A stretch of 64,000 nucleotides of DNA, taken from assembly GCA_964584335.1 (NCBI GenBank), contig CAZOZN010000003.1:86436-150435 (forward strand), in the 5' to 3' direction. Positions 19,687-38,660 of this stretch are shown one piece after another (positions within the stretch are counted from its first letter, which is position 1; the number at the start of each line of letters is the position of its first letter). The translations under genes and the position numbers were made by a program. Source of the DNA: an uncultured archaeon. Its GTDB lineage: Archaea; Aenigmatarchaeota; Aenigmatarchaeia; PWEA01; JAGHBM01. The notes below the pieces were generated by a model. The model had not been told where the DNA came from, made no database searches, and worked only from the letters and a program-made list of their open reading frames with translations.

Positions 19687-20763
19687 ATGTCTCTGAAGTA
19701 CAGTAGTCTGATTAGGCAGCATTTATCTATTCTTAAAAATCTTCAATACGAATCTGGTCTTTTTGCTGCATCGAAGAAAAGGTCAAGTACAGGATATAAC
19801 AAAAGCTGGTTACGTGACAATTTTTACGAGTGTTTGGCCTTCCAAGTATTGGATGATTGGGATACTGTTTTTAAGACTTACAAATCAATTTTAAGAATTT
19901 TTGAAAAACACGAATACAAGATAGACCGTGCAATTTCAAAAAAACCCGAACACAGGCACGAATATATTCATGCCCGTTATCACCCTCATACATTTGACGA
20001 ATTTTGGGACGACTGGGGCAATAAGCAGAACGACTCGATAGGAGCTATACTTTTTGCTATAGGAAGTCTGATGGAAAAAGGTAAACAAATTTTAACTAGA
20101 GATAAGGATTATGTCTTGGTTCAAAAACTGGTTGATTACTTGTCAACACTGGAGTACTGGCATGACGAGGATAGTGGTATGTGGGAAGAGGATGAGGAAG
20201 TTCATGCTTCTTCTATAGGCGCTTGTCTGGCTGGTCTTAATAAGGTCAGCAAGATAGATGGCATAAAAGTTGACAGGAAGTTAATAAAAAATGGAAAAAA
20301 AGCACTGCATAATATCTTGCCACGTGAATCAAAGAGTAAATTTGTTGATTTGGCTTTACTATCTCTGATTTGGCCTTACGAAGTTACTAGTAAGACCGAG
20401 ACAAGGGAAATATTAAACAATGTCAGGTATCATTTGGAAAGGAGTAGGGGCGTTATTCGTTACAAAAATGACCATTATTATAATAAGAACCCCGATGGTT
20501 ATTCTGAAGAAGCAGAATGGACTTTTGGTTTTAGTTGGTTGGCAATAATTTATAATAAACTAGGAATGTTAAGAGTAGCAAAAAAATATGAAAAACTTGC
20601 TGTTGAAACAACAACTGAAAGCGGGATACCAGAGCTTTACTTTTCACATACAGACAAATATAATCCAAACACACCGTTGGGTTGGTCAGAATCCCTTTTT
20701 ATAATTGCTCTTTATAATATCAATAAAAAACACAAAGGCAACAAAAATGCAGTTAAAAAATAA
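19687..20763 (+). CDS. glycoside hydrolase family 15-like (glucoamylase/glucodextranase-type (alpha/alpha)6 barrel)
   Basis: WLRDN and GMWEE catalytic motifs; 358 aa. Confidence 0.65.
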   Translation: MSLKYSSLIRQHLSILKNLQYESGLFAASKKRSSTGYNKSWLRDNFYECLAFQVLDDWDTVFKTYKSILRIFEKHEYKIDRAISKKPEHRHEYIHARYHPHTFDEFWDDWGNKQNDSIGAILFAIGSLMEKGKQILTRDKDYVLVQKLVDYLSTLEYWHDEDSGMWEEDEEVHASSIGACLAGLNKVSKIDGIKVDRKLIKNGKKALHNILPRESKSKFVDLALLSLIWPYEVTSKTETREILNNVRYHLERSRGVIRYKNDHYYNKNPDGYSEEAEWTFGFSWLAIIYNKLGMLRVAKKYEKLAVETTTESGIPELYFSHTDKYNPNTPLGWSESLFIIALYNINKKHKGNKNAVKK

Positions 20764-23279: not shown

Positions 23280-24964
23280 TATTTTAACTCCACGAAATAA
23301 TTTCCCATAGCCATGAATTTGTTTTTTGTCCTAATCATAACATCGATAACATCTTTGGGTGTGTTAACTATAGGATAACCGTGCAAGTTTAGGCTTGTGT
23401 TTAGTATAGCACCAAGTCCTGTGTTTTTCTTTACATTCTCTATTATTTTTCTGTACATTTTGTTTTCATTTGTTACCATCTGTGGTCTCGCTGAACCATC
23501 AACATTTATTACAGAAGCCATTTTTTCCCTAAATTCTTCTTTTACCATAAATCCCATTGTCATAAATCTTTCTATATAATCATAGTCTTCAAATATTCTC
23601 TTGGATTCCTCTTCCAGTATTGATGGACAGAACGGTTGATACCATACTCTTTTCTTTATCTTTAGGTTTAGGTCGTCTTTTGACTCAAGAGATGATGCAG
23701 AAGCCATTATACTCCTGTTTCCCAATGCTCTCGGACCAAATTCCATTCTACCCTGATAGAGAAAAACTATTTTACCTACTGAAATCAAGTCTGCAACATT
23801 TTTTTCTATGTTTTTATCATAGTAGTAGCTTACTTTTTTGTTGTTTTTCAGTTCTGATTCTATGTCTTCTTCCTTGTAATCGGGTCCTAAATAGACGTTG
23901 TTAAAATTATATTTCCATTTGCCGTTTTTTTCGAAATTTAGATACAATGCTGCACCAAGTGCAAGACCGCCATCACCCATGTGTGGAAAAACGAACCATT
24001 TTTTTACTTCTGGTATGTGTCTTATTTCCATATTTGCTTTTATGTTTGATGCAACGCCTCCTGCCCATGCGATATTGTTTATTCCAGTCTCTTTTATTGA
24101 ATTTTCAAACAGTTCTACCATTTTTCTTTTTAAGGTTTCTTGTGCCATCCAAGCGAACTGTTCTGGAGGAGTATGCCATAATATTTTTCTTAGCTCCTTC
24201 CACATTCTCACAGAAGAATATTTCGCCTTTAAGTCCATTCCATCTACTTTAAAAAAATCTAGCATATGATTTTTTTTATCAGGTATTTCAAATGCGAAAT
24301 CAGACAAGGCCATGACCTTTCCCTCGTCCTCTAGTTCTCTCATTCCCATCAGATTTGTTACGTGTTCAAAGAATATTCCGAGGGAGTTTTTTGATGATAT
24401 TGAAGATATTCTTTCTATTTTTCCCTTATCAAATACATTTACGCTTCCCGAAAGACCGTCACCAACACCATCTATAGTCAATACAAGTGATTTGTCAATT
24501 CCCGAGCAAAAACCTGCTCCCGCAGCATGCGCCATGTGATGGTCTATTATATTTAGCTCAAAATCTTTAAACCCCATCTTCTTCAGATTTTTTCTTAAAA
24601 GTTTTTCGCTCATTTTTTTTGTCGGATAACTTGGTCCTATTTCTGTCAGCTTGTATTTCCAATCTTTTTTCCATCTGGCGAATTTGGGGTATACCTTTCT
24701 TCTTCTTAATAAGTAGTATTTGTCTTTTAGTGATGGAAAAGCTCTTGTTAATGTTTTAGAAAAGTCGCTCGTGCATGCAGCAACAGTTTTGATATCATCG
24801 GGTCTTAATTTAAGATAATTTAGGCAGCACTTTATTGATTCTGTTGGAAATCCCACGTCTAATTTTTTTCTTGTAATCCTTTCTTCGTTTACAGCTACTT
24901 TTATTTCGTTTCCGTCAACTATAGCAGCACCGGCATCGTGACCGTCCCATATACCTAGAATCAT
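23279..24964 (-). CDS. NodU/CmcH-family carbamoyltransferase
   Basis: MILGIWDGHDAGAAIVDGNEIKVAVNEERITRKK (Kae1-like ASKHA N-domain); HMGDGGLALGAALY. Confidence 0.8.
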   Translation of the reverse strand: MILGIWDGHDAGAAIVDGNEIKVAVNEERITRKKLDVGFPTESIKCCLNYLKLRPDDIKTVAACTSDFSKTLTRAFPSLKDKYYLLRRRKVYPKFARWKKDWKYKLTEIGPSYPTKKMSEKLLRKNLKKMGFKDFELNIIDHHMAHAAGAGFCSGIDKSLVLTIDGVGDGLSGSVNVFDKGKIERISSISSKNSLGIFFEHVTNLMGMRELEDEGKVMALSDFAFEIPDKKNHMLDFFKVDGMDLKAKYSSVRMWKELRKILWHTPPEQFAWMAQETLKRKMVELFENSIKETGINNIAWAGGVASNIKANMEIRHIPEVKKWFVFPHMGDGGLALGAALYLNFEKNGKWKYNFNNVYLGPDYKEEDIESELKNNKKVSYYYDKNIEKNVADLISVGKIVFLYQGRMEFGPRALGNRSIMASASSLESKDDLNLKIKKRVWYQPFCPSILEEESKRIFEDYDYIERFMTMGFMVKEEFREKMASVINVDGSARPQMVTNENKMYRKIIENVKKNTGLGAILNTSLNLHGYPIVNTPKDVIDVMIRTKNKFMAMGNYFVELK

Positions 24965-25004
24965 TTAATACACCCCTTTTAATTACTAAATACTCAAATA
25001 TATA

Positions 25005-26645
25005 TCAAACTTTTATGTTTTCTATAGTTTCATATATTGTTGCGTTGTAACCCCTGAAGTTGTTTTTCGTCGAATTAAATATTTTTACTATTTTTAGATT
25101 TAAATCCTTTGGCTCTATCTCTTTTTTTAATAATTTTTTATAATCTTGCGGCAATCTCCTGTAAGAATCTTCCCATATTATATCCAGGCTTCTGCCACCT
25201 CCTATTATTATATACGATCCCTTAGGAATTTCTTGTCCTTCATATAATATATTTATTTCTTTATTTAGTGAAAAGTAGTACTCTAGCATTGTTTTGGCTC
25301 CGTCATCTGTGTAAACTTCTTTTTCTGGGTAGTTTTTTATGAAATCGTAAACATTCTCTAGGTCTGATGTGCCACTTTTTAGAAATTTCGTACTTCTGTT
25401 TACAAAAAATATTGATGTAACAAAAAGGAAAAACAATAAGGACATAATAAATATATTGTTGTATTTTTTTGGTATCTTTAATTTTTTAAGTTTTATTTTA
25501 CTCAAGCTATATCCTAACATAATCAGTGCAGGAATTGTTAAGACACTCAGATATCTGGGTCTTTTATACATCATAAAGTATTCTATCCCGTTTTTACCCG
25601 TCTCGATAAATGTAAATCCAAACTCAAGAAACAAAAATAATATAACAAACCAAAGCATAAAGAAAATTCTTTTTTCTTTGCCTTTCTTTATAGTATTATA
25701 AGAGAAAAAAATTATTGACGGTATTATAAAATAATAAAAAAATCCAAAGTAGTTTATCATACTTTCAGGGTCTTCAACCGTATGCCATAAATTGAAAAAT
25801 GTTTTTGAATGCTCAAGAAACATATGGTTTACGTATTTGAATTTTATTATACCTCCATCTATTGTCTCTACTGGCCTTGAATGGTAGTTGTTGCTTATTG
25901 CATTAAATGCAGAATTCTTATGTAATAAAAAATCTGAATTATAATACTGATATAAACTACCTTCTATTGTAAATATCAAAAGGAATCCAACAAATAACAG
26001 AAGATGTTCTTTTTTAAATTTACCTTTAATATAGAGAAAAATCATGTAAATTATATATACCCCTATCAGAATCATGCCAACGATTTTTGTTAAGTAAACC
26101 AACCCTAGGAATACTCCCGAAAAGAAAATCAGTATCTTATCATTATTTTTTATCCCCTTCAGGAAAAAGAACACGGAAAGACCGGAAAAAAATGCCATAG
26201 GTATATCAGGCACTATTCTTGTCGAATAAATTATATTGAGTGGAAATATAGAGAATAAAAAAGCTCCTATAATACCGGTTTTTTCATTAAAGAATTCCTT
26301 TCCAAATAGGTATATCAATATTAAAGAACCAATTGAGCATAATAAAAGGTATATCGAAGTCGATAATTTATTTACACCAAAGATTTTATAAAAAAAGGCA
26401 ACAGGCAAATATGTCATCAATCTAAAGTTTCTTGGTCCCGAGTCACTTTCTGGTATTTCAAATCCCTTTTCCAGCGTATTTAATGAAAGTTTATAATATA
26501 TTATCTCATCCTGTGGTTGAGCGTCTATAAAACCAATATAAAAATATGACCTGATTAATATGGCTAGGATTATTATAAGAATCAGGATTTTAGTTTTGTC
26601 TTTTTTAAAAATTTTACTTATCATTATTTTACACGACTTTCTCAT
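25005..26645 (-). CDS. GT-C fold glycosyltransferase, PMT/ArnT family (paralog 1 of 3)
   Basis: QDEIIYY DE motif after TM1; FGKEFFNEKTGIIGAFLFSIFPLNIIYS is shared with the next paralog. Confidence 0.6.
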   Translation of the reverse strand: MRKSCKIMISKIFKKDKTKILILIIILAILIRSYFYIGFIDAQPQDEIIYYKLSLNTLEKGFEIPESDSGPRNFRLMTYLPVAFFYKIFGVNKLSTSIYLLLCSIGSLILIYLFGKEFFNEKTGIIGAFLFSIFPLNIIYSTRIVPDIPMAFFSGLSVFFFLKGIKNNDKILIFFSGVFLGLVYLTKIVGMILIGVYIIYMIFLYIKGKFKKEHLLLFVGFLLIFTIEGSLYQYYNSDFLLHKNSAFNAISNNYHSRPVETIDGGIIKFKYVNHMFLEHSKTFFNLWHTVEDPESMINYFGFFYYFIIPSIIFFSYNTIKKGKEKRIFFMLWFVILFLFLEFGFTFIETGKNGIEYFMMYKRPRYLSVLTIPALIMLGYSLSKIKLKKLKIPKKYNNIFIMSLLFFLFVTSIFFVNRSTKFLKSGTSDLENVYDFIKNYPEKEVYTDDGAKTMLEYYFSLNKEINILYEGQEIPKGSYIIIGGGRSLDIIWEDSYRRLPQDYKKLLKKEIEPKDLNLKIVKIFNSTKNNFRGYNATIYETIENIKV

Positions 26646-28296
26646 ATATTCTTAATTTATAGGACCTGTAACCTGCAATTCTGTTTTCAACTTCCTTTAA
26701 AAGTCTCAGTCCCAGTTCTTCGGGTTCTGTTTCTTTTCTTATTAACTTCTGGTATTTTTCGGGTAAATCTTTTATAGGGATAGCCCCGCTTATGTCTATA
26801 CTTCTAGACCCTCCCAATATTAACAAGGAACCATTTTTTATTTTGGTTTTATCATCTAGGACATATATGTTTTCTTTTTTATAACCAGATAGGTATTTCA
26901 TTATGTTTGCAGCTGCTGGGTCTGTATATACTTTCTTTTCTGAATTTTCAATGAATTTATATGCAATTTTCAAATCACTCATGCCATCTAGAATATATGA
27001 CCTGCTTCTTTGTGTAAAGTAGATTGAACTCAACAGTAAGAATGACAGCGCAATTAAAGTTATTATCTTGCTATTTTTTTTGAAATATACAGACAAGTTT
27101 TCAGGATTTATGAACCATGCAAGTATAAGCATTGAAGCTGGCGTCAGTAAGTTCAAAAATCTTGGTGCTTTGAAAAGCATGAAATATCTTATAAATCCGT
27201 TAGATTGGTCTATTTTTAAGAATCCAAAGTCAAAGTAGATTAACAATAAAATTATCCATATTAAAAAGAAATAATTTAAATATTTTTTGTTTTTTTCCTT
27301 GTAGATTTTATATGAAAAAAATATTACCGATGGGACTATTAAGAAGTAAAAGTATCCGAAATAATTTATTTGGGTTCTTTTTTCGTTAGGAGTCCAAAGA
27401 CCAAAAATAGTTTTTGTGTGTTGTAAAAATGTTCCCGGATCGTATATTATCTTAGCTCTGCCCACCTCTATTACAGAATTTAGTTCTTCTATGTCTCCGC
27501 CGTTAAAACTGTATTTACTGAACCAAGCTTCTGAGACTATCTCTTGCCTTAAAAAAGGATTGCCTGTAAATGCAAAAAGATATGAGCTTTCAAGAGCTAT
27601 TATCAATCCAAACCCTAGTATGAAAATAAAATAAAAATATTTCGTGTTCTTCTTAATTGATTCTAAAAGTAAAAATATGACGTATATTCCTATGAATAAT
27701 ACTGCTGTAAATTTTACTAGATATCCCAATCCCAATAAGATACCAGATAAAAATATATATGACTTGTTTTTTTCTTTTATTCCCTTCAAAAAAATAAAAG
27801 ATGAAAAAGTGCAGAAAAAGAGAAGAGGAACATCGGATATTATTCTTGTTGATGATATTATGTTTAGGGGAAATATTGAAACTAGGAAAGCTGCTATCAG
27901 GCCTGTTTTTTTACTGAAGAATTCCTTTCCCATGAAGTATACCAGCGTAATTGTCCCTATTGAGCAAAGAAAACACCAAAAAGATGTTGTTGTACCGTTT
28001 ACTCCAAAAATCTTGTATATTATGGAAGTCGGCAAGTATGAAAGTATCCTTAATGAGAAAGTGTCTTGTGGACCGAAATTGTAATTTTCTTCTAGATTTT
28101 TGTATTTACTCAATTCAAGTGAGTTTATCGATGCTTTGTATGCCAGCTTATTGTATATAGAATCGTCTTGGGGTAATGCATTTGTAAGTCCCGTAAAGAA
28201 GAAAATCCTCAAGAAAATAGCTATTATTAGTATAATTATAATTATTTTATTTTCTTTAATTATTTTTATTATGTCCATTTTATTTTGCCCCTTCAA
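26629..28296 (-). CDS. GT-C fold glycosyltransferase, PMT/ArnT family (paralog 2)
   Basis: QDDSIY motif; MGKEFFSKKTGLIAAFLVSIFPLNIISS. Confidence 0.6.
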   Translation of the reverse strand: MKGQNKMDIIKIIKENKIIIIILIIAIFLRIFFFTGLTNALPQDDSIYNKLAYKASINSLELSKYKNLEENYNFGPQDTFSLRILSYLPTSIIYKIFGVNGTTTSFWCFLCSIGTITLVYFMGKEFFSKKTGLIAAFLVSIFPLNIISSTRIISDVPLLFFCTFSSFIFLKGIKEKNKSYIFLSGILLGLGYLVKFTAVLFIGIYVIFLLLESIKKNTKYFYFIFILGFGLIIALESSYLFAFTGNPFLRQEIVSEAWFSKYSFNGGDIEELNSVIEVGRAKIIYDPGTFLQHTKTIFGLWTPNEKRTQINYFGYFYFLIVPSVIFFSYKIYKEKNKKYLNYFFLIWIILLLIYFDFGFLKIDQSNGFIRYFMLFKAPRFLNLLTPASMLILAWFINPENLSVYFKKNSKIITLIALSFLLLSSIYFTQRSRSYILDGMSDLKIAYKFIENSEKKVYTDPAAANIMKYLSGYKKENIYVLDDKTKIKNGSLLILGGSRSIDISGAIPIKDLPEKYQKLIRKETEPEELGLRLLKEVENRIAGYRSYKLRIYEKVV

Positions 28297-29984
28297 GGCG
28301 CATAATAAAGTTCCGTTGTATACCTGTTAAAAACGCCGTAGTTTTTTAGATTTACTCTTTTCAGAAGTTCCCAGTTATCTGGAGTTTTGTTCATAAAATC
28401 AGGGAACTTCCTTGACTTCAAAAGCACGTATGGGGAACCGTTTGTTATTACATAAGAATTTTTTATATAATCCCCAGAACTGTAATATTCATCATCACAA
28501 TCTATATTATCACACCCGTAAAGTGTCAATCTATTTCTATAAGTCTGATTATATTTGAAGTAGAAGCTCATCTTTCCAATAAGCCAGTGGTCAGATATGT
28601 ATATTTTTTTATCTCCAATACCCCTTTCTTTTATGATATTAGAGACCTCCCTTACTTCTCCCATACCATTTCTTAAAAAAGTATGTGACTTGCTTGCGTA
28701 AAATACAGATGTAGATAAAAGAAAAGTTATTATCAGGATTCCCATAATTTTTTTATATTTGCCTCTTAGCGGGTTTTCAAATAAAAGCAATGAAACTATA
28801 ATCATTGACGGTATATTCATACATATTAGAAATCTGGGTACTCTTGCCGCCACGCAATAATCCATTATTTCTGTACAAAAGAACTGAAGAAAATATTCAA
28901 AAAACAAAAACATTGTTAATATCCATACTATTAAAAATATCTTGTATTTGTCTTTTTCTTTTCTGTACCTTACAAATCTGTATAAAAAATAAATTATGCC
29001 TATCGTAACGAAGTAGTATAAGAAACCAAACAAAGGCGGGTCGTGTATCCATTCAAAGAAACCGATTTTGTTTTCATAGTTAACGTCTTCCATTATCGGG
29101 GGTGTTAATAGATTCTTTATTACCCACCCTGTAAAATTTGGAATTCCTATCATGTTGAAGCTTTCTGATTCTAGGTTAAACATTTCCTGATAATACCACA
29201 TATAATCTGTGTTATCGTTGCCTCCTGTTTTGAAAGCACTTACTCTGCCTTTCATAGAGTGGAACCATTGACCGGTCGAATTATAAAAATATAAGTTCTG
29301 TAAACCAAACATAAGAAGAAATCCTATAACAAAAACTGAGAAAATCTTAAGATAATCTTTGGATAAATATTCCTTTTTTGTTTTTTTGTCTATAAGAAGA
29401 TAAAAAATCAAAACCGGTACAATAAGAAATATGTAACCTTTTGTTAAGTATCCTATAACCAGAAAAATTCCAGAAAAAAATGCGTAAATTTTTGATTTTC
29501 TTCTTTTTGCTCTAACAGAAAATAGTATGAATAGAGAAGAAAAAAGCATAAACGGTATGTCGGGTCCTATCTGAGTTGCATATATAACATCCAAAGGAAA
29601 AAAAGATAAAAGGAAAGCCGATACTAGTCCTATTTTTTCTGAAAATAATTCTTTGCCCAACAGGTAAGAAACAAAAACACAACCCAGTGAACATATGATA
29701 AAATAAACTGAAGTCGATATTTCATTTATACCAAAGACTTCCCAAAAAAATACTATCGGAAGATATACTGCTATTCTGTTGCTCCAAAAAACTTCATTTG
29801 GCGCCCAATCATCTCCTTTGAATATATGTGAAGCGTATTCAAGATAGGCAAAATCGTCATAGAAACCCATACCTACAAAGAAGAAAAGTCTCAGAAAGAG
29901 TGCTAAAAGTAATATTAGAGTAAGTATTATTTTGGGGTCTGATAATTGTTTTTTTATTTTTTCATTAATTTTTTTATGTTTCAA
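28293..29984 (-). CDS. GT-C fold glycosyltransferase, PMT/ArnT family (paralog 3)
   Basis: YDDFAY motif; same topology; 4-nt overlaps with its neighbours indicate an operon. Confidence 0.6.
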   Translation of the reverse strand: MKHKKINEKIKKQLSDPKIILTLILLLALFLRLFFFVGMGFYDDFAYLEYASHIFKGDDWAPNEVFWSNRIAVYLPIVFFWEVFGINEISTSVYFIICSLGCVFVSYLLGKELFSEKIGLVSAFLLSFFPLDVIYATQIGPDIPFMLFSSLFILFSVRAKRRKSKIYAFFSGIFLVIGYLTKGYIFLIVPVLIFYLLIDKKTKKEYLSKDYLKIFSVFVIGFLLMFGLQNLYFYNSTGQWFHSMKGRVSAFKTGGNDNTDYMWYYQEMFNLESESFNMIGIPNFTGWVIKNLLTPPIMEDVNYENKIGFFEWIHDPPLFGFLYYFVTIGIIYFLYRFVRYRKEKDKYKIFLIVWILTMFLFFEYFLQFFCTEIMDYCVAARVPRFLICMNIPSMIIVSLLLFENPLRGKYKKIMGILIITFLLSTSVFYASKSHTFLRNGMGEVREVSNIIKERGIGDKKIYISDHWLIGKMSFYFKYNQTYRNRLTLYGCDNIDCDDEYYSSGDYIKNSYVITNGSPYVLLKSRKFPDFMNKTPDNWELLKRVNLKNYGVFNRYTTELYYAP

Positions 29985-31612
29985 ATATAACCCAGCCCCC
30001 TTAATCTTTCTTTTATTTTTTCTTTGTCTATGTCTTCTTTGTCTTTATCTTTTTTGGTTAAAGGGTTTTTTATTTTTTTATGTTTTATTTGGTTTTCTCT
30101 AAGATAATCTTCTTGAATTATTTCTTTCATTATATTTCCGTCAATTTTTTCAGGAATTCCTTCGTTTAGGAGGTACAATATTGTCGGCATTATGTCTGTT
30201 ATATTCCTTTCTCTTAATTGTGAATTTTTTATTGATTTACCACACGCGAAAAATATCCCATTGATTTTATGTCCACCTGTTCTGCCAACTGCCTGTGGTG
30301 TTATTAGTTTTTGTGAACCGAATTCAAACATCTTTACCGGAAGATAGTTCATTTTTTTATCGAAAAAAACCATGTCAGGTGCCAATTCATCTTTGCATTT
30401 ACCGTATAACTCTTTTTTTGTATATATACAGTCAAACATACTTTCTCCGGACGGTTTTTTAATTTCCTTTAACTCTTTTTTTATTTTCTCTGTAAATTTA
30501 TCGTAGTCTCCTATGTTTTCTTTCTTGAAGTAAAATTGACCGAATTCTCCCAGTGAAAAAACTTTACTTTTTTTAAGGTCTATATCATCAGTAGAAAGGA
30601 ATAATTTTTTTGCAATTGACTCTAAAATAGATTTTGATTCAGACGTAAAAGTTTTTTTGTAGCTAATATTAAGCGGATTTAATCTCATTTTTCTCAATAA
30701 ACTTAAAACGTTGTACTGAGTGAATCCTGAATTATGTAATATTTTTTTTATTTTTGTTTTTCTTTCTTTCTTTAGTTCTAGAAAACCTTTTTTTATTAGC
30801 CAGTTGTTTATGTAAGTTGTTTTATAAACTGGACCAAAGCCATGGTCCGATAAAACAAAAAGAGTTGTATCTTCGTCCATTTCATCTATTATCTTAGATA
30901 TAAAACTGTCCGCTTTCTCGTAGAATTTGAACAAGTATTTTCCGAATTCATTTTTTTTGTATTTTGGATGTTTCTTATCTATATATCCCCACAATTCATG
31001 AGAAAGCTCATCCAAAACGTGGAAAACACATATAATCAAATCCCATTCCTTGTTCTCTTTTAAATAATAGAATATTTTTTCTGTATTGTCCCAGCATCTA
31101 TACTGGTCTTTTATAAACGCTTCTTCGTTGTTTTCTGAGTAGTATATTTCCGGCTGAATTTTAAATGAATTTAAATTTTTTTTAAGTTCTTCATGTATTT
31201 CTTTTGGATAACAGTAGTTTGAATTGTTTTCTGGAGCAGGTAGTCCTGAAATCATTATACCGTTTAATTTTTCTGGAGGATATGTGAGAGGTACATTTAT
31301 AGAAATGACTTTTTTGTCTTCCATGTAGTTCCATACACATGGGCATTTTCTGTCTTTTGAAGTTGTCAAATCTTTTTTATATTCTTTTGTAATTTTTAGA
31401 AAATCATATACCCCGTGTTTACCCGGGCCATTTCCTGTTAAAAAAGAAGTCCAAGCAGGCGGTGAGGATGTCGGTATTGTTGACTTCAATTTTCCGAAAG
31501 AATTACTTTCTTTTATATTTTTCAGTGCAGGCAGTTTACCTTTTTTCATCAGAAAATTTATTATTTTCCAGTCAGCACCATCTAAACCAACAACTATAAA
31601 CCTTTTAGGCAT
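29981..31612 (-). CDS. alkaline-phosphatase-superfamily enzyme, type I phosphodiesterase/nucleotide pyrophosphatase-like
   Basis: FIVVGLDGADW, then STIPTSSPPAWTSFLTGNGPGKHGV (Thr/Ser nucleophile region, NPP-like). Confidence 0.6.
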   Translation of the reverse strand: MPKRFIVVGLDGADWKIINFLMKKGKLPALKNIKESNSFGKLKSTIPTSSPPAWTSFLTGNGPGKHGVYDFLKITKEYKKDLTTSKDRKCPCVWNYMEDKKVISINVPLTYPPEKLNGIMISGLPAPENNSNYCYPKEIHEELKKNLNSFKIQPEIYYSENNEEAFIKDQYRCWDNTEKIFYYLKENKEWDLIICVFHVLDELSHELWGYIDKKHPKYKKNEFGKYLFKFYEKADSFISKIIDEMDEDTTLFVLSDHGFGPVYKTTYINNWLIKKGFLELKKERKTKIKKILHNSGFTQYNVLSLLRKMRLNPLNISYKKTFTSESKSILESIAKKLFLSTDDIDLKKSKVFSLGEFGQFYFKKENIGDYDKFTEKIKKELKEIKKPSGESMFDCIYTKKELYGKCKDELAPDMVFFDKKMNYLPVKMFEFGSQKLITPQAVGRTGGHKINGIFFACGKSIKNSQLRERNITDIMPTILYLLNEGIPEKIDGNIMKEIIQEDYLRENQIKHKKIKNPLTKKDKDKEDIDKEKIKERLRGLGYI

Positions 31613-31641
31613 ATTAATATATTTTTTCTGTTATATTATAT

Positions 31642-32340
31642 ATGCATAGAGTTTCGGTAGTTTTGCCTGTTTATAATGAGGCCTCTGTTCTAAAAGATTC
31701 TGTCAAGAAAGTTTTAAAATATATGAATGGCCTGGGTTTTTCTTATGAAATAATAATAGCTGCTGATGGTTCCACCGACGGTACTTCCGAGATAGCAGAT
31801 GAACTTTCTTCTAATTACAGCCAGATAATTGTTTCCAATTCTAGAAACAGGCTTGGTAGAGGCAGGGCTCTTAAAAAATCTTTCAGGATGGCAAAATCGA
31901 AATATATGATTTATTTTGATATAGATTTGTCGACTTCTTTGGATTCTATAAAGGATGCAATTGATTGTCTGGATAAGGGATTTGATATATGTATTGGTAG
32001 TAGATTGCTTCCCGCATCTAAAACCAAAAGGTGTTTGAAGAGAGAAATGTCTTCAAGAGGTTACAATATGCTTGGAAGGTTCTTATTTAATTCTAAAATA
32101 ACTGATTTTCAGTGCGGTTTCAAGGCATTTAGTAAAGATACACTGCCTATAATATTGGAGTCGAAGAACAATCATTGGTTTTGGGATACTGAAGTTCTTA
32201 TAAGAGCCGAGAAAAGAGGAAAGAAAATATGCCAGATACCTGTAGAATGGGTTGAAGACAGAAAAACTAAGGTAAATATTTTTAGGTGCATTCTGGGCAT
32301 GGGAAGCAGGATGTTGAAATTAAGGTTCAGTTTACTTTAA
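31642..32340 (+). CDS. GT2 glycosyltransferase (dolichyl-phosphate sugar synthase-like)
   Basis: VVLPVYNEA, DGSTDGT, DIDLS motifs. Confidence 0.75.
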   Translation: MHRVSVVLPVYNEASVLKDSVKKVLKYMNGLGFSYEIIIAADGSTDGTSEIADELSSNYSQIIVSNSRNRLGRGRALKKSFRMAKSKYMIYFDIDLSTSLDSIKDAIDCLDKGFDICIGSRLLPASKTKRCLKREMSSRGYNMLGRFLFNSKITDFQCGFKAFSKDTLPIILESKNNHWFWDTEVLIRAEKRGKKICQIPVEWVEDRKTKVNIFRCILGMGSRMLKLRFSLL

Positions 32341-33663
32341 AAAATTTATGAATAATCTTATTTTGTCCGACAGGGAACCTATCTTAAATAATCTGAAAAT
32401 CATTTTTGGTCTCATATAAAAATTCTTGTACGCCTTTCTTACTTTTTTCTTTAGGAATTCTTTTTTGAATTCTCCTGATTCTTCTGGAAAGAATATTCTA
32501 TTCTTAAATGAATTCTCATAGAAAGAAGTTCCCGGATAAGGAGTTGCTATATGAAATGATGCATATGTTGGGTCAATTTCTTTGGAGAATTTTATAGTTT
32601 CTTCCATATCCTTTTCTGTTTCTCCTTTTAGACCAAAAAGGAAGAAAGCGACCGTATCTATTCCAACTTTTTTTACCAACTTCATTTTTTTCCTTATTTC
32701 ATTTTTTGATATTCCTTTTTTTGTTTCTTTTAGTACTTTTTGTGAACCGCTCTCGACTCCAAAATGAATTATCTTACATCCGCTTTTTTTCATTTTTTTA
32801 AGTAATTCTTCTTCTATTGTGTCGAATCTTGTCTGACAAGTCCAGTTTATTTTATATCCTTCTTTTGTAATAAAGTCACAGATTTCTTCTACTAATTTCT
32901 TATTTAATGTAAATTCCAAGTCAAAGAAATATAAGTTCTTTATATTGAATTTTTCAATAAGATTTTTTATCTCTTTTTTAATTTTTTCTGGGCTTTTTGT
33001 TCTGTATTTTCCGTACATTTTTTTAAGACAGAAAATACAAGAATAAGGACATCCTCTAGAAGCTTCAAGAAGAGCGAATCTCTTTCCCATTATTTCATAT
33101 TCATAATTGTCCATTTCGAGCAGGTGATATGCTGGAAAAGGCAAATCATCCATTTTTAAATTTTTTCTTTCTCCGGTGAAAAATACTTCTCCTTTTTTCT
33201 TTATGAAAATTCCCCGTACTTTTGATATATCTTTTTCTTTGCATAAATCAAGTATTGTTTTTTCCGGCTCGCCTTTTATTATACCATCCAATTCAACGTT
33301 TTCGAATATTTTATCGGGCATTACTGAACCATGTACCCCCAGAAGATATAGTTCCGATTTAAAATTTTCTTTTATTTTTTTAATAATCTCGTAAACTGGT
33401 TCCAAGTTAAGATGAGGACATTGCCATCTGTCGATACTTGAACTTGTTACAAATATTTTGTCCGGTTTTTTAATCTTTTTTAAAATTTGTTCTGGTCCTA
33501 TTCTTTCAGCGTTTGCATCTATTATATTAACATCAATTTTATTATTTTCTAGCATGGCTGCCGAAATTGCAAGTGACATTGGAGGCCATATCCTATTGAA
33601 TATAAGACCCTTCTTTTTCTCTACTGGATAATCGAATGACGGATTTATCAAGTAGACCTTCAT
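32332..33663 (-). CDS. B12-binding radical SAM protein (class B)
   Basis: Start taken at MKVYLINPSF; Rossmann-like B12 domain, then ASRGCPYSCIFC (CxxxCxxC). Confidence 0.65.
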   Translation of the reverse strand: MKVYLINPSFDYPVEKKKGLIFNRIWPPMSLAISAAMLENNKIDVNIIDANAERIGPEQILKKIKKPDKIFVTSSSIDRWQCPHLNLEPVYEIIKKIKENFKSELYLLGVHGSVMPDKIFENVELDGIIKGEPEKTILDLCKEKDISKVRGIFIKKKGEVFFTGERKNLKMDDLPFPAYHLLEMDNYEYEIMGKRFALLEASRGCPYSCIFCLKKMYGKYRTKSPEKIKKEIKNLIEKFNIKNLYFFDLEFTLNKKLVEEICDFITKEGYKINWTCQTRFDTIEEELLKKMKKSGCKIIHFGVESGSQKVLKETKKGISKNEIRKKMKLVKKVGIDTVAFFLFGLKGETEKDMEETIKFSKEIDPTYASFHIATPYPGTSFYENSFKNRIFFPEESGEFKKEFLKKKVRKAYKNFYMRPKMIFRLFKIGSLSDKIRLFINFLK

Positions 33664-33668
33664 TTTAA

Positions 33669-34703
33669 TCACAAAATATTTCCCATTATTGTCTGATATG
33701 CTTCGCAGGGTGTCCAGCAACCTGGACATTTGCCTTCTTTTATTTCTTTTCTTGTTTCTTTTGATTTTTTTGAGTTCCAAATCTTATTCAAATCGTATTC
33801 AGTTTCTCTTATGTTACCTATTTTCTTGTTAAATATTGTACAAGGATAAACATTTCCTTTAGGGTCTATGAAGCAAGAAGAATTTAGGGATTTGCACTTG
33901 AGCGGACAATTTCCCGTTTTTATATAGTTTCCTGAGAGTTTCAGAAATTTTCTCTCAATAAAAGAGACTGGGTTTAGACCTTTTTTTATCTTTATAAAAT
34001 CCAAAAGTTTTTTTTCGAGTTTTTTTTCATATTTTTTGTTTTTGTTTGTTTCACCTTTGTTATTAAAGTATAAGTCAGATTCATGGTAGAAATTTATATG
34101 GAAATCCTCCATTTTTAGTTCTGGTATTTCTTTTTTGATTTCATTAAAAGTATTTTTTATTTCGTCTATATTATATTTGGAAATTGTGTATCCTATATAA
34201 CATTCAATTTTGTTTTCCCTTAGCTTCTTATAAGTTTCCACTGCATTTTTCCAGCAGTTTACACCTCTTAATTCGTTATGAAGCTCTCTTGGACCATCTA
34301 TACTTACTGTTACTATGAATTTTGGAACCAGATTTTTAATTTTTTTACAATTTCTGTTTATCTTTTCTGTCAATATACCGTTTGTTGTCAAGTTTAGAAG
34401 GTAAGTTCCTTTCATAGAGCTTACTATATCTACTATATCTTCCCTTAGAAAAACTTCCCCTCCTGTTAAATTTACCCAAGGAATCTTGTTTTTTTTAAAG
34501 AATTTTTTTATTTCTTCCTTTTTCAGTTCATTTTTAGATTCTCTTTTCCATATACCACAAATCTTGCATCTGGAGTTGCAACTATATGTTACTGCAAAAG
34601 TTATCTTGTACGGCTTACTTAATGTTTTTATGTTTGATAGAAAAACATTCCATCCCAGGTTTATTAATTCGAGAATTCTAACACCCTCTTTTAATGAATT
34701 CAT
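33669..34703 (-). CDS. radical SAM protein with C-terminal SPASM domain
   Basis: TYSCNSRCKICGIW (CxxxCxxC); C-terminal Cys cluster CPLKC...C...C...CPGCWTPC. Confidence 0.65.
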   Translation of the reverse strand: MNSLKEGVRILELINLGWNVFLSNIKTLSKPYKITFAVTYSCNSRCKICGIWKRESKNELKKEEIKKFFKKNKIPWVNLTGGEVFLREDIVDIVSSMKGTYLLNLTTNGILTEKINRNCKKIKNLVPKFIVTVSIDGPRELHNELRGVNCWKNAVETYKKLRENKIECYIGYTISKYNIDEIKNTFNEIKKEIPELKMEDFHINFYHESDLYFNNKGETNKNKKYEKKLEKKLLDFIKIKKGLNPVSFIERKFLKLSGNYIKTGNCPLKCKSLNSSCFIDPKGNVYPCTIFNKKIGNIRETEYDLNKIWNSKKSKETRKEIKEGKCPGCWTPCEAYQTIMGNIL

Positions 34704-35349
34704 ACATTATTGTCTTGAGTATATTCCAACCATCCGTAAATGTTCTTAGGTTACCTTTTCCATATTTGCGTGCTTTTTCAAAGCTAGGTACCTCCAGAAC
34801 TCTTAGCCTCTTTTTAGCTGATTTTATTGACATTTCTGTTTCTATACCGAAACCATTCCTTCTTAAACCCAATTTTTTAATTGTAGATTTTCTAAAGGCC
34901 CTGTAACCGTAGCATAAATCAGAGTATTTCATACCCCAGATTAAGTTAACCAAAGAAACAAAGAATTTATTTCCTATTTTTCTGTGAAAAGACATGTCTT
35001 CTGTTCCACCGCCTTGTATAAATCTTGAACCCATACATACATCATATCCCGCTTCTATACCGGCCTTTAATAATATTATCTCTTTTGGTATCATTGAACA
35101 GTCTGCGTCTATATTTATGACAATACCTCCTGTTGCTTTTTCCATACCCAGCCTTAGCGCGGATCCCTTGCCTTTATCATCGTATACTATCCTACACCCG
35201 AACTTTTTTGCTATATCAACGGTCTTATCCTTTGAGTGACCATCTACTATAATTATTTCATCCACACAGTCAAGCTCTTCCATTTCCTTTAATACTATTG
35301 GTAAATTTCTCTCTTCGTTTAGTGTTGGTATTACCACTGAAACTTTCAT
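34678..35349 (-). CDS. GT2 glycosyltransferase
   Basis: VVIPTLNEE, DGHSKDKT, DADCS motifs. Confidence 0.75.
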   Translation of the reverse strand: MKVSVVIPTLNEERNLPIVLKEMEELDCVDEIIIVDGHSKDKTVDIAKKFGCRIVYDDKGKGSALRLGMEKATGGIVINIDADCSMIPKEIILLKAGIEAGYDVCMGSRFIQGGGTEDMSFHRKIGNKFFVSLVNLIWGMKYSDLCYGYRAFRKSTIKKLGLRRNGFGIETEMSIKSAKKRLRVLEVPSFEKARKYGKGNLRTFTDGWNILKTIMYEFIKRGC

Positions 35350-36149
35350 TTTTTCCTACCCCCAAACTTGAAATAAAGAAAAATAGCGAAAAGAACAAAG
35401 AATATGGAAGCAAGGATTAATATTAGATTATTTTGTTCCTTTTTTTCTACTATACTTACAACACCGCTACCGAATGAAGTATAGTGGTAACCGCTCTTTT
35501 CATATTCAAGAGAGGTTATTATGACGTATGAACTCCCCGGAAGGGCACCAAAAGACTCTATTTCATATTCAATTTCTTTTTCCTCTTTAGGCCCTAGAGT
35601 AACGTATTTTTCTGATTCATCTCCCTTTATTTCTCTGGGCAAGTATAGTTTTATTTTTATTTCTTTTTGGTCATTTTCAAAGTTCCTTATTTTAAGACTT
35701 GTTTTCTCTGAATCATCTTTAGATACTTCAATTTTCTCAAAGGTACCGTGTATTGAGGATTCGTAACCTTTTCTGTATGTTATTGTATGTGGAGATATAA
35801 CGGAGAATGGATACATGTTTGCGTCATGGTATATCGTCTTTATTAAAAATGGGTAATTGCCTTCTGTTATATTATTTTTTAGTGAAACAGATAAACTACC
35901 GTTTATTTTATCTCCTGGATTAATCGAATCTTTTTTTATTTCTCCATTTATTTCAAAGTATTCAGAGCTGAAGGGTTCTATTTCTACTTTATACGCTGAT
36001 TCATCACCCATTTGCTCAATATTTACAATAATCTCTGTCGAATTTTTGTGAATTATACTTGATTTTAGCTGAGTTCCTATGCTTATATAACTACCGTAAG
36101 CAGTTGAAGCAAATAGAATTAATATTAGCAATATTATGATTTTTTTCAT
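35346..36149 (-). CDS. exported protein with signal peptide and C-terminal TM anchor (surface protein)
   Basis: N-terminus MKKIIILLILILFASTAYG; C-terminus LILILASIFFVLFAIFLYFKFGGRKK; 4-nt overlap with the downstream GT2. Confidence 0.4.
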   Translation of the reverse strand: MKKIIILLILILFASTAYGSYISIGTQLKSSIIHKNSTEIIVNIEQMGDESAYKVEIEPFSSEYFEINGEIKKDSINPGDKINGSLSVSLKNNITEGNYPFLIKTIYHDANMYPFSVISPHTITYRKGYESSIHGTFEKIEVSKDDSEKTSLKIRNFENDQKEIKIKLYLPREIKGDESEKYVTLGPKEEKEIEYEIESFGALPGSSYVIITSLEYEKSGYHYTSFGSGVVSIVEKKEQNNLILILASIFFVLFAIFLYFKFGGRKK

Positions 36150-36179
36150 AAGAATTTTTTAATTTCCTACAAATATAAA

Positions 36180-37091
36180 TTATTTCCTCATTAGCACGAT
36201 TCTGCTCCATTTACTTTCGTCTTTTTTATTGTAGCTGCAGTTTTCTTCTATTTTTTTGGCGAATTCTTTTATTTCTTCATGTAGCGGCATTTCATTATAT
36301 TTCAGCCTTTTTCTTGAAAACCCCACTGACATAAAACTCTTTACTTCTAGAAAGTCAGGTTTGTTTTTTTCTATTATTTTTGCGTATAATTCCGGTTTAA
36401 CGAAATTCAGGTTTTTTACAAGGGTTAGTCTTACTACAGTATTGCAGGAATAATTATCCAGTAGGGATAAAGATTCCATTATTTTTTCCCAGTGGTTTCC
36501 TATAGGCAGGCATGTTTTTTTGTATATTTCTTCATTTGGAGCGGGTAATGTTACATAAAGATTGGTAGGTTCCTCCATGTCTTTTAATACATTCGGGTTT
36601 GTACCGTTTGTCACTATAAAGACAGAGAATTTTCTTTTTTTAAATTCTTTAATGAGTTCTGATATTTCAGGATATTCTGTGGGCTCCCCTGCCAAGGATA
36701 TTGCTACCTGATTTGGATTCATTGCTTCATTTACCGTTTTTTTATCTGCTTTTTCATTCCCCTTGAATCCTGATAAAAGTTCCCTTTGGGCTTCTATGCA
36801 GCCTTCTACTATTTCTTCAGGTTCGTCAATTTCTCCCTTCCATTCGGGGTTTGTTATTGATGTGTCTCTCCAACAAAATCTGCATCTATGTTTGCAGAAA
36901 GGCACAGCGGGACTCATCTGTATACATCTGTGCGTGCTTATACCATAAAATTGTTGTTTGTAACAAAAGCCTTCCCCCGCTATTGCTTTTCTGGTCCAAG
37001 AACATGTTTTGACTGCAGTATGCTTGTTTTTTCCTACAAAACGGTAGCCCATTTTTTCCATTCTTTTTATGTCTTTTTCCGGTATAATCAT
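36180..37091 (-). CDS. radical SAM tRNA 4-demethylwyosine synthase Taw1/TYW1-like
   Basis: Auxiliary-cluster cysteines (KTCSW, GFCYK, HRCIQ), radical SAM CKHRCRFCWRD, and GEPTEYPEI. Confidence 0.55.
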   Translation of the reverse strand: MIIPEKDIKRMEKMGYRFVGKNKHTAVKTCSWTRKAIAGEGFCYKQQFYGISTHRCIQMSPAVPFCKHRCRFCWRDTSITNPEWKGEIDEPEEIVEGCIEAQRELLSGFKGNEKADKKTVNEAMNPNQVAISLAGEPTEYPEISELIKEFKKRKFSVFIVTNGTNPNVLKDMEEPTNLYVTLPAPNEEIYKKTCLPIGNHWEKIMESLSLLDNYSCNTVVRLTLVKNLNFVKPELYAKIIEKNKPDFLEVKSFMSVGFSRKRLKYNEMPLHEEIKEFAKKIEENCSYNKKDESKWSRIVLMRK

Positions 37092-38002
37092 TTTACCACT
37101 ATTTCCTTTAAATCTTCAGCTATTTCAGTGTTCGGGAAAATCTTCTTTGCTTTCTCTAAAAGTTTTTCTGTTTCTTTATATCTTCTTGAGAAGTGCGTCA
37201 AGACCAGTTTTTTTACTTTTGCATCTTTTGCTATTTTTGCCGCATTTACAACGCTTGTGTGTCTTTCTAAGTGATGTTTTTTACCGTGTTCATCCAAAAA
37301 AGTACCTTCGTGTATAAGCAAATCAGAGTTTTTTGCCATGTTCGAGAGATTTTTGCAGGGCGCTGTATCACCGGAGTATACTATTTTTTTGCCCTTGGTT
37401 TTTTTTGCTATATCTTCAAGTTTTATTTTTTTATCGTTAAGGATTATCTCTCCCTTTTGCTTTATTTCTTCCAGTATTTTTCCCTCCTCCAAACCTCTTT
37501 TCTTAGCTTTTTTTAAATCAATATTCCACCTATCTTTTTCCTCAAAACAGTAGGCTACAGCGGGAACCGAGTGCTTTACCGGAACAGAAAGTATTCTGTA
37601 ATGCTCGTTTTCAAAGATTTTTGATATGTCATTTCCCTCGAAGCCTACATCTTTTGTTTTCAATTCAAACCCGAAGTCCCAGTAACTAAGTTCTGAAAAG
37701 GCGTCTATGAATCTTGAAGCTTCTGGACCATATATTGTTAGAGGTTTTTCTCTCTGTTCCAGGTTGAAGGTTTCTATGAGTCCTATCAATCCTGCGAAAT
37801 GGTCTGCATGCCAATGGGTTATAAACACCCTCCTTATTTTCATAAAATGAAGGTTGGCTTTCATCATTTGAAGTTGTGAAGATTCCCCGCAATCCCAAAG
37901 CATTAAATCGCCCTGATAATCTATGAAAATACCAGGATGATGCCTTTCCGGGGTTGGTATTGAGGAACCCGAACCGAGAAAAACAACTTTTATTTTGGTC
38001 AT
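37088..38002 (-). CDS. rnz: ribonuclease Z (tRNA 3' endonuclease)
   Basis: VVFLGSGSSIPTPERHHPGIF, LWDCGESSQLQ, HWHADHFAGL metallo-beta-lactamase motifs. Confidence 0.8.
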   Translation of the reverse strand: MTKIKVVFLGSGSSIPTPERHHPGIFIDYQGDLMLWDCGESSQLQMMKANLHFMKIRRVFITHWHADHFAGLIGLIETFNLEQREKPLTIYGPEASRFIDAFSELSYWDFGFELKTKDVGFEGNDISKIFENEHYRILSVPVKHSVPAVAYCFEEKDRWNIDLKKAKKRGLEEGKILEEIKQKGEIILNDKKIKLEDIAKKTKGKKIVYSGDTAPCKNLSNMAKNSDLLIHEGTFLDEHGKKHHLERHTSVVNAAKIAKDAKVKKLVLTHFSRRYKETEKLLEKAKKIFPNTEIAEDLKEIVVK

Positions 38003-38063
38003 AAGACTATTTAAGATGCAGTAATATTTAATAATAAAACGGTTTATCTTTAATTGTGTTTTT

Positions 38064-38660
38064 ATGATAAAATCAATAATATTTGATTGGGGTGGTGTAA
38101 TATCTAAAAAAGGTAGTTACACAGAATTTTCGGAAATTCATTCAAAAGAATTCAATAAAACACCGGAAGAAATTCATTTTATAATAAAGAAATACTGGAA
38201 TATTGCAAGGATAAACAAAATAAAATCGTATGATTTCTGGAAATTCGTATCAAGAGACCTGAACTGCGGTGAGGAATATTTCAGGAATTTATTGAAAGAT
38301 TATGTTTCTATAAACTACGATGTTTTGAAATTTATAAAAAAAATCAAAAAAAATTACAAACTTGCCTTACTTTCTAATCAGATAGAGGATTGGCTTGAGG
38401 AGATTATTAGAAAGCATAATTTTAATGATATTTTTGATGTTATTGTAACATCTTATAATATAGGAGTGGAAAAACCTAAAAAGGAAATATACATGAAAAC
38501 TCTTTCAGAATTGGGCTTTGAGCCCTTTGAATGTGTTTTCATAGACGATAAAGAGAAAAATGTATTATCAGCAAAAGAAATCGGGATTAAAACAATTCTT
38601 TTTAAAAATTTTATTCAGATGAAAAAAGAACTCGAATCTTTTGGTGTTAAAGTCGGGTGA
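38064..38660 (+). CDS. HAD-superfamily hydrolase (YihX-like)
   Basis: IIFDWGGVI motif I variant; FIDDKEKN motif IV. Confidence 0.55.
   Translation: MIKSIIFDWGGVISKKGSYTEFSEIHSKEFNKTPEEIHFIIKKYWNIARINKIKSYDFWKFVSRDLNCGEEYFRNLLKDYVSINYDVLKFIKKIKKNYKLALLSNQIEDWLEEIIRKHNFNDIFDVIVTSYNIGVEKPKKEIYMKTLSELGFEPFECVFIDDKEKNVLSAKEIGIKTILFKNFIQMKKELESFGVKVG

Follow-up and report, generated by a model that had tools for sequence, protein, structure and literature searches.

Extracytoplasmic glycosylation by means of a lipid carrier, in which a GT2 glycosyltransferase is combined with a GT-C glycosyltransferase, is a central route for decorating the cell envelope. Polyprenyl-phosphate sugar systems of this kind include GtrA/GtrB/GtrV, ArnC/ArnD/ArnEF/ArnT and CsbB/GtcA/YfhO, as well as the archaeal AglJ/AglD together with the dolichyl-phosphate-mannose transferase AglS. 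The deformylase ArnD and the mycobacterial epimerase DprE1/E2 are precedents for tailoring of a sugar on its lipid carrier and, to our knowledge, deformylation, deacetylation and epimerisation are the only kinds of tailoring known for a lipid-linked sugar. Here we describe a locus in a 64,000-nucleotide (nt) stretch of contig CAZOZN010000003.1, referred to below as the window, in which genes for two radical S-adenosylmethionine (SAM) enzymes, one with a SPASM domain and one with a B12-binding-type domain, lie among glycosyltransferase genes and a gene for an anchored tandem Ig-like protein. On balance, and with moderate confidence, we read the four genes at 32332-36149 as part of a variable surface-glycosylation island in which the radical SAM enzymes would tailor polyprenyl-phosphate sugars ahead of their transfer by GT-C enzymes. 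If this is true, a radical SAM step at the lipid-linked stage would be a new class of chemistry for envelope glycobiology. These four genes and a fifth, which is convergent with them, are as follows:

36149-35346, minus strand: anchored tandem Ig-like protein, 267 residues, CARDB/NEW3-like
35349-34678, minus strand: GT2a, 223 residues (PF00535, 90.8 bits)
34703-33669, minus strand: radical SAM/SPASM enzyme, 344 residues (PF04055, 62 bits; SPASM domain PF13186, 47.5 bits against a cut-off of 21.5)
33663-32332, minus strand: B12-domain (class-B) radical SAM enzyme, 443 residues (PF04055, 109 bits)
31642-32340, plus strand: GT2b, 232 residues, soluble (PF00535, 98.3 bits)

The B12-domain radical SAM enzyme and its neighbours

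The B12-domain enzyme has a class-B architecture, made up of an N-terminal B12-binding-type domain and a radical SAM core in which the cysteines of the CX3CX2C motif (C205/C209/C212) are invariant. PF02310 is matched at 31.8 bits, marginally below its cut-off of 32.1, and is recognised in 27 of 32 family members. The AlphaFold2 model has a predicted local distance difference test score (pLDDT) of 91.4, and the closest PDB entry by both sequence and fold is AprD4 (6fd2; 7.6e-38; TM-score 0.74-0.77, full length), with which the enzyme shares 18-19% identity. The next fold matches are MgmA (9ccb), TsrM and OxsB, and TokK is also matched at full length. Among the NCBIfam families the top matches are HpnJ (204.3 bits against a TIGR03471 cut-off of 577.6), which spans nearly the whole protein and the whole profile, and BchE (185 bits); lower scores are obtained for methylase families, and none of the NCBIfam curated cut-offs is reached. 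AprD4 does not bind cobalamin (PMC12931638) and, since this is the nearest structural relative, cobalamin binding by the window enzyme cannot be assumed. The closest characterised relatives, HpnJ, AprD4 and OxsB, are sugar-ring-modifying enzymes that are not methylases, and a rearrangement, dehydration, deoxygenation or ring contraction is therefore favoured slightly, and with low certainty, over C-methylation as the reaction catalyzed.

A pattern scan in which each GTDB species was represented by a single genome identified relatives of the B12-domain enzyme in 307 species genomes. Gene contexts were counted for the best 80 of these 307 relatives (37-51% identical), with neighbours taken from our own open reading frame (ORF) calls and searched using the proteins of the window and jackhmmer GT-C profiles as queries. 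The family is not confined to one metagenome bin, as it is present in more than 300 species-level genomes of bacteria and archaea, including Aenigmatarchaeota, Altiarchaeales, candidate phyla radiation (CPR) lineages, Acidobacteriota, anammox and other Planctomycetota, Aminicenantes, Desulfobacterales, Methylomirabilis and others. A GT2 gene adjoins the radical SAM gene (within 300 bp) in 49 of the 80 loci, often overlapping it or standing less than 10 nt away, and lies within 6 kb in 56 of them. Similarly, a GT-C gene (PMT_2, PTPS_related or TMEM260-like) is found within 6 kb in 53 of the 80 loci, and in 34 of the 44 loci whose two flanks are each at least 6 kb long. Both a GT2 and a GT-C are present in 12 of 13 archaeal loci and in 30 of 67 bacterial loci. 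Pre-computed Pfam annotations of independent contigs are in agreement, with the order LPG_synthase_TM, GT2, B12, PMT_2, GT2 next to PTPS_related in L002/L003; PTPS_related, B12, GT2 in Methylomirabilis (L004); and B12, GT2 in an archaeon (L001). The gene linkage seen in this census is far beyond chance.

Both GT2 proteins of the window resemble polyprenyl/dolichyl-phosphate hexose synthases of the dolichyl-phosphate mannose synthase (DPMS)/ArnC/GtrB type. For each of them the nearest PDB entry is Pyrococcus DPMS (5mlz), followed by ArnC and GtrB. The best NCBIfam match of GT2a is AglJ (TIGR04182; 151.1 bits against a cut-off of 325), and those of GT2b are ArnC, AglJ (61.2 bits) and Dol-P-hexose transferase; all equivalog scores are below cut-off. 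No transmembrane segments are predicted in either protein, so that both are without the C-terminal transmembrane helices of GtrB and ArnC. Across all lineages, the closest matches of the GT2s adjoining the B12-domain gene are polyprenyl-phosphate monosaccharide synthases, namely ArnC, PgfS, AglJ, Dol-P-hexose transferase and PpgS. Furthermore, GT2b is 41-47% identical (blastp) to the GT2 beside the B12-domain gene in L011 and L170, and both of these loci have the same convergent GT2/radical SAM layout as the window, where the 3' end of the GT2b gene overlaps the B12-domain gene by 9 nt. This orthology and the shared layout indicate that the real partner of the B12-domain enzyme lies outside 32332-36149.

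Three clusters among the relatives (L038, 1366-19477; L060, 1152-16311; L037, 1293-19103), carried by an uncultured bacterium, Aminicenantes and Scalindua, hold three to six paralogous B12-domain radical SAM genes each. These genes are interleaved with GT2 genes, a TMEM260/PMT_2-like GT-C gene, DUF362/ferredoxin genes and a metallophosphoesterase, and the clusters may represent a far more complex form of the cassette. Because orthologues are present in anammox bacteria, the O-glycan of the Kuenenia S-layer, which is heavily methylated (PMC5088730), was also considered as a lead, but that paper gives no genetic link and the lead was dropped.

The SPASM enzyme, the anchored protein and the modular island

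The radical SAM core of the SPASM enzyme begins at about residue 35 and contains a CX3CX2C motif at C42/C46/C49, and the protein has seven C-terminal cysteines. The cysteines invariant across the family are C42/C46/C49, C270, C288 and C326/C329/C333, which include five of the seven C-terminal cysteines. No NCBIfam subfamily cut-off is reached, the best match being the uncharacterised PTO1314 family (91 against 306 bits), and the nearest solved relatives are SkfB and CteB. Neither this enzyme nor the B12-domain enzyme has a predicted signal peptide or transmembrane segment, and both are consequently predicted to be cytoplasmic. Contexts of SPASM orthologues were available from 49 metagenomic loci, many of them short. 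Of these 49 loci, 17 have an adjacent GT2, 17 have a GT-C no further than 6 kb away and eight have a carbamoyltransferase, which is directly beside the SPASM gene in L123, L132, L134 and L136. In the closest relatives (L089, L092, L094, L109, L145) the gene order is anchored Ig-like protein, GT2a, (GT2), SPASM, PMT_2, carbamoyltransferase, PMT_2. The SPASM enzyme travels separately from the B12-domain enzyme, accompanied by another GT2, PMT_2 genes and a TobZ-like carbamoyltransferase, and is a candidate sugar-tailoring enzyme.

The anchored protein possesses a hydrophobic, signal-like N-terminus (residues 4-22) and a predicted C-terminal transmembrane segment (residues 242-260) followed by the residues GGRKK. 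Its AlphaFold2 model (pLDDT 89.8) contains two β-sandwiches (residues 22-125 and 133-234) and a C-terminal transmembrane helix. A Foldseek search of the PDB returned only generic tandem β-sandwich matches (RbmA, transglutaminase C-terminal domains and ciliary ASH-type domains), which offer no functional clue, and homologues have weak Pfam matches to CARDB/NEW3. The family is large, with 1,310 clusters at E<=1e-3 and 293 at E<=1e-30 in a profile search, nearly all of them 255-300 residues long. In both bacteria and archaea the gene stands directly upstream of a PTPS_related (PF10131) GT-C, which is about 700 residues long in archaea and 900-1,060 residues long, with TPR repeats, in bacteria. 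This pair is often followed by a B12-domain radical SAM gene and a GT2 (L020, L031, L035, L053, L080, L085) or lies near such a pair (L002/L003, L004, L010, L013, L015, L170). The Ig-like module is also found fused to PMT_2/PTPS_related GT-C enzymes (P0337, 952 residues; P0367, 866 residues; P0388, 470 residues). The family is thus tied to GT-C enzymes by adjacency and by these fusions, the latter being links of the Rosetta-stone kind, and the anchored protein is likely an extracytoplasmic partner of GT-C glycosyltransferases. The conserved motifs of the family, N-x-G-D-E-x-A-Y and Y-x-D-A-N-x-Y-P-F-S, occur in similar form in both domains. The second motif was considered as a modification site and rejected on account of this repetition, which we take to be typical of CARDB-type folds.

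Related archaea (L008, L169, L170, L171) contain a conserved slot with the order RNase Z, TYW1, island, aTrm56/threonyl-tRNA synthetase (ThrRS). The first island gene is always that of the Ig-like protein, and the later content differs. In L169 it is followed by PTPS_related, GT2 and DUF2079 with no radical SAM gene, and in L170 by PTPS_related, GT2, PMT_2, GT2, the B12-domain radical SAM gene and LPG_synthase_TM with no SPASM gene. In L171 and L008 it is followed by GT2, GT2 and SPASM with no B12-domain gene; L008 continues with PMT_2, carbamoyltransferase and PMT_2, and the L171 contig ends just past SPASM. GT2a is 77-79% identical to the GT2 after the Ig-like protein in L171 and L008. The slot is a hypervariable, modular glycosylation island in these archaea. 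Together, the synteny variation and the orthology of GT2a indicate that the window joins two cassettes, one of the Ig-like protein, GT2a and SPASM and one of the B12-domain enzyme and GT2b, to which a bank of GT-C genes is added.

These results bear on an earlier note on this DNA, which had treated the four minus-strand genes as one operon and as a possible post-translational maturation system. The four ORFs with their domains, as well as the predicted export and C-terminal anchoring of the first product, are borne out. The note had described every junction as a 4-nt overlap or a 5-nt gap. This is correct for the anchored-protein/GT2a junction, where the 4-nt overlap is ATGA, and for the SPASM/B12-domain junction, a 5-nt gap given a B12-domain start at ATG 33663, but the GT2a and SPASM genes overlap by 26 nt when read from the sequence. 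The start at ATG 33663 (443 residues) is adopted because homologues are 444-455 residues long and because of the alignment; the over-extended starts at TTG 33780 (mechanical ORF, 482 residues) and in the database call P0001 (465 residues) lie inside the SPASM gene. The genes are indeed functionally linked, but the unit is not self-contained, as GT2b lies outside it and the island continues to about 21585.

The same note had called SPASM/B12-domain pairs hallmarks of the maturation of peptides or of ribosomally synthesized and post-translationally modified peptides (RiPPs). In the corresponding model the two enzymes would act on the anchored protein, or on a different peptide, in a RiPP-like way, through C-methylation, thioether formation or crosslinking, with a sugar added by the GT2. 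There are many peptide-modifying enzymes among the SPASM and class-B radical SAM families, and this proposal is also in line with sub-threshold NCBIfam matches to ApyD, WgkB, SkfB-type and rSAM_ocin families, with SkfB and CteB as the nearest solved relatives of the SPASM enzyme, and with the strongly conserved motifs of the anchored protein (e.g. Y-x-D-A-N-x-Y-P-F-S). In addition, 11 of the 80 loci, from several phyla, contain a homologue of the anchored protein no more than 6 kb from the B12-domain gene. However, the two radical SAM enzymes are not co-conserved. SPASM-type matches lie within 6 kb of the B12-domain gene in 9 of the 80 loci, and these matches are mostly weak and belong to other subfamilies. 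The quartet does not recur in the syntenic relatives, which carry one radical SAM enzyme, the other, or neither, and the anchored protein keeps its position in L169, L170, L008 and L171 without one or both of them. A Pfam scan of 32 SPASM family members found only Radical_SAM, SPASM and Fer4_12 domains, with no RiPP recognition element (RRE)/PqqD domain, and the junctions described above leave no room for a precursor ORF. The only candidate substrate is a folded two-domain Ig-like protein of 267 residues with a signal-like segment, in which the motifs repeat between domains as in CARDB-type folds and whose constant partner, fusions included, is a GT-C enzyme in place of a radical SAM enzyme. 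Orthologues of both radical SAM enzymes occur in glycosylation contexts and not in cofactor ones. Taken with the recurrence of anchored-protein homologues near the B12-domain gene, this means that the refuting pattern named in the note is not observed, and the broader idea of the note, an uncharacterised modification of a surface glycan or protein such as a modified sugar, fits the evidence.

The remaining features of the island and its surroundings are listed below:

36150-36179, minus strand: intergenic spacer of 30 nt between TYW1 and the anchored-protein gene
29981-31612, minus strand: alkaline-phosphatase-superfamily phosphodiesterase/pyrophosphatase-like protein, 543 residues (PF01663, 113 bits), no transmembrane segment
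28293-29984, minus strand: PMT_2-type GT-C glycosyltransferase (PF13231, 60-66 bits; 7-10 predicted transmembrane segments)
26629-28296, minus strand: PMT_2-type GT-C glycosyltransferase (PF13231, 60-66 bits; 7-10 predicted transmembrane segments)
25005-26645, minus strand: PMT_2-type GT-C glycosyltransferase (PF13231, 60-66 bits; 7-10 predicted transmembrane segments)
23279-24964, minus strand: TobZ/NodU-type O-carbamoyltransferase, 561 residues (PF16861 and PF02543)
21585-23279, minus strand: fourth PMT_2-type GT-C glycosyltransferase, 564 residues (PF13231, 38 bits; 12 predicted transmembrane segments)
19687-20763: GH15 (glucoamylase-like) glycoside hydrolase, outside the island, between ThrRS and aTrm56
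17552-19243: threonyl-tRNA synthetase with an archaeal editing domain

The island extends over about 15 kb (about 21585-36149), with aTrm56 beyond its far end and with the 30-nt spacer, TYW1 and RNase Z upstream. The nearest PDB entry to the carbamoyltransferase is TobZ (3ven, 3e-59). The location of this TobZ/NodU-type gene among PMT_2 genes and its recurrence beside SPASM orthologues suggest that the final product carries a carbamoylated sugar. The PF01663 gene heads the run of PMT_2 genes, and related alkaline-phosphatase-superfamily genes flank B12-domain orthologues in L007 and L022. A PF03706 (LPG_synthase_TM) gene stands beside the GT2/B12-domain pair in L002/L003 (6356-7312) and L170 (13900-14790), and the encoded proteins are candidate flippases for a lipid-linked sugar. 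The spacer contains the sequence TTTATAT about 25-30 nt upstream of the anchored-protein ATG, which could be a putative archaeal TATA box for a leaderless transcript. A scan of 31500-38200 for bacterial-type promoters and terminators, a type of scan that is not applicable to an archaeon, gave counts equal to those of shuffled sequences, and a tRNA scan of the window returned zero tRNAs. The host is assigned as an archaeon because the window encodes aTrm56, TYW1/Taw1 (396 bits, above cut-off) and a ThrRS that carries an archaeal editing domain. Named homologues are mostly from Aenigmarchaeota metagenome-assembled genomes, and the host is of DPANN type and probably Aenigmatarchaeota-like. For episymbiotic DPANN archaea, contact with their own hosts could plausibly depend on a surface-glycan island that varies in this way.

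Proposed pathway and alternative explanations

By analogy with ArnC/ArnD/ArnT, DprE1/E2 with Emb/Aft, and GtrB/GtrV, we propose the following pathway for the island. First, on the cytoplasmic side of the membrane, each cassette's own DPMS/ArnC/GtrB-type GT2, a small and soluble protein, would attach a sugar to polyprenyl (dolichyl) phosphate. Next, a cytoplasmic tailoring enzyme would alter the lipid-linked sugar or its nucleotide-sugar precursor; the candidates for this step are the B12-domain enzyme with GT2b, the SPASM enzyme with GT2a, and the TobZ-like carbamoyltransferase. HpnJ and calditol synthase, for which the radical SAM conversion of a sugar already on a lipid has been proposed (PMC13459092, PMC9092360), are published precedents for such a step. 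The tailored product would then be flipped across the membrane, and PMT_2/PTPS_related GT-C enzymes would pass the sugar to an extracytoplasmic acceptor. The anchored tandem Ig-like protein may serve as an extracytoplasmic acceptor-binding or scaffolding subunit of a GT-C enzyme, and could itself be an acceptor.

Several observations weigh against this pathway. Both radical SAM families are known from genes and sequence only, and the curated-family scores are all far below cut-off, so that functions cannot be transferred from the named families. The acceptor of the GT2 could differ from polyprenyl phosphate, and no flippase candidate was found inside the island of the window. No GT2 or GT-C lies within 6 kb in 13 of the 67 bacterial B12-domain loci, some of which are short contigs. 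Because related genomes are non-independent samples, there are fewer independent observations than the counts suggest, and the GT-C census relies on jackhmmer searches over crude ORF calls of our own. In addition, the B12-domain orthologue of candidate division CSSED10-310 (L007, 6259-10280, the same as L029) is flanked by genes for a sulfatase-family protein and for a class I SAM methyltransferase, and neither a GT2 nor a GT-C is nearby, a context that the proposed pathway leaves unexplained.

The strongest competing explanation, although an unlikely one, is the remodelling of a membrane-lipid head group, in which the GT2 glycosylates a lipid and one or both radical SAM enzymes convert the hexose to a carbocyclic (cyclitol or calditol-like) or otherwise rearranged head group that is retained on the lipid, much as HpnI/HpnJ would do in hopanoids and Cds in Sulfolobus. 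Radical SAM rearrangement of lipid-attached sugars, including ring contraction, has been proposed for HpnJ and calditol synthase (PMC13459092, PMC9092360). HpnJ is also the top NCBIfam match of the B12-domain enzyme, at near full length, the adjacency of a GT2 parallels that of hpnI and hpnJ, and a lipid methyltransferase of the PEMT/ICMT type is encoded downstream in L075. Nevertheless, the HpnJ score is far under its cut-off and near that of BchE, the GT2s resemble polyprenyl-phosphate sugar synthases and are not of the HpnI type, and no HpnK-like deacetylase is seen. The other conserved partner is a GT-C enzyme, which needs a transferable lipid-phosphate sugar donor.

Somewhat less probable is an explanation in which the radical SAM enzymes act on nucleotide sugars or on a finished cytoplasmic glycan, for example in C-methylation or epimerisation of a nucleoside diphosphate (NDP)-sugar, and the GT2 and GT-C genes merely belong to the same glycan locus. 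The sugar-acting relatives AprD4 and OxsB use soluble substrates, characterised homologues of the TobZ-like carbamoyltransferase act on soluble glycosides, and the bacterial B12-domain loci include GT4 and Wzx-type genes, the latter in L027. The adjacency found in 49 of the 80 loci is, however, specific to small, DPMS/GtrB-like GT2s and does not extend to NDP-sugar synthesis genes, which are not seen among the annotated neighbours, only some neighbours being annotated. Finally, as the two enzymes are not co-conserved and neither a precursor gene nor an RRE is found, RiPP-like maturation of the anchored protein or of another peptide is very improbable.

The proposed tailoring of lipid-linked sugars in this island may also be one instance of a broader arrangement. 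It is tentatively suggested that a polyprenyl-phosphate GT2, a B12-domain radical SAM enzyme and a GT-C form a triad that is widespread in bacteria and archaea, often with a tandem-Ig membrane subunit, that performs radical chemistry on a lipid-carried sugar. Ring contraction, deoxygenation or C-branching by such a triad would lead to an unusual, possibly carbocyclic or branched, sugar being installed on the cell surface. Literature searches found no published description of the GT2/B12-domain radical SAM/GT-C association or of the pair formed by the Ig-like protein and the PTPS_related GT-C. The hypothesis is directly testable, as one carrier of the B12-domain enzyme, the acidobacterium Paludibaculum fermentans (L075), is in culture.

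Comparison with known systems

RiPP maturases such as SkfB, CteB, PoyC and ApyD have superfamily domains in common with the radical SAM enzymes of the window. They differ from the locus described here, in which neither an RRE nor a precursor gene is found, the two radical SAM enzymes are not co-conserved, and the context is one of glycosylation throughout.

The similarity to AprD4, the radical SAM 1,2-diol dehydratase of apramycin C3'-deoxygenation, includes the two-domain, class-B-like architecture, and AprD4 likewise acts on a sugar ring. In contrast to AprD4, which is cobalamin-free (PMC12931638), the family of the B12-domain enzyme keeps a recognisable PF02310 domain in most members (27 of 32). 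AprD4 also has a soluble aminoglycoside substrate and another genomic context.

The HpnI/HpnK/HpnJ system, which forms bacteriohopanetetrol cyclitol ether, shares with the window a GT2 beside a B12-domain radical SAM enzyme whose top curated match is HpnJ. HpnJ and the calditol synthase Cds are also the known cases of a radical SAM enzyme for which the rearrangement of a lipid-attached sugar has been proposed (PMC13459092, PMC9092360). The match of 204 bits against 577.6 indicates that the window enzyme is not an HpnJ equivalog, and hopanoid and HpnK genes are absent from the window. Furthermore, to judge from the GT-C partner and the polyprenyl-phosphate-type GT2, the sugar here would be held on a transferable donor and would not form a terminal lipid head group as in the HpnJ and Cds systems.

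The island resembles the polyprenyl-phosphate sugar systems in that a small, DPMS/GtrB/ArnC-like GT2 is paired with GT-C enzymes, here with four PMT_2 genes at 21585-29984. There are several differences from these systems. No flippase gene was recognised in the island, its GT2s are without the C-terminal transmembrane helices of GtrB and ArnC, and a tandem-Ig anchored protein accompanies the GT-C enzymes. The putative tailoring enzyme is a radical SAM protein of the B12-domain or SPASM type, for which literature searches found no such description. The type of system, lipid-carrier glycosylation, is known, and the radical SAM tailoring step and the dedicated Ig-like subunit would be new variants of it.

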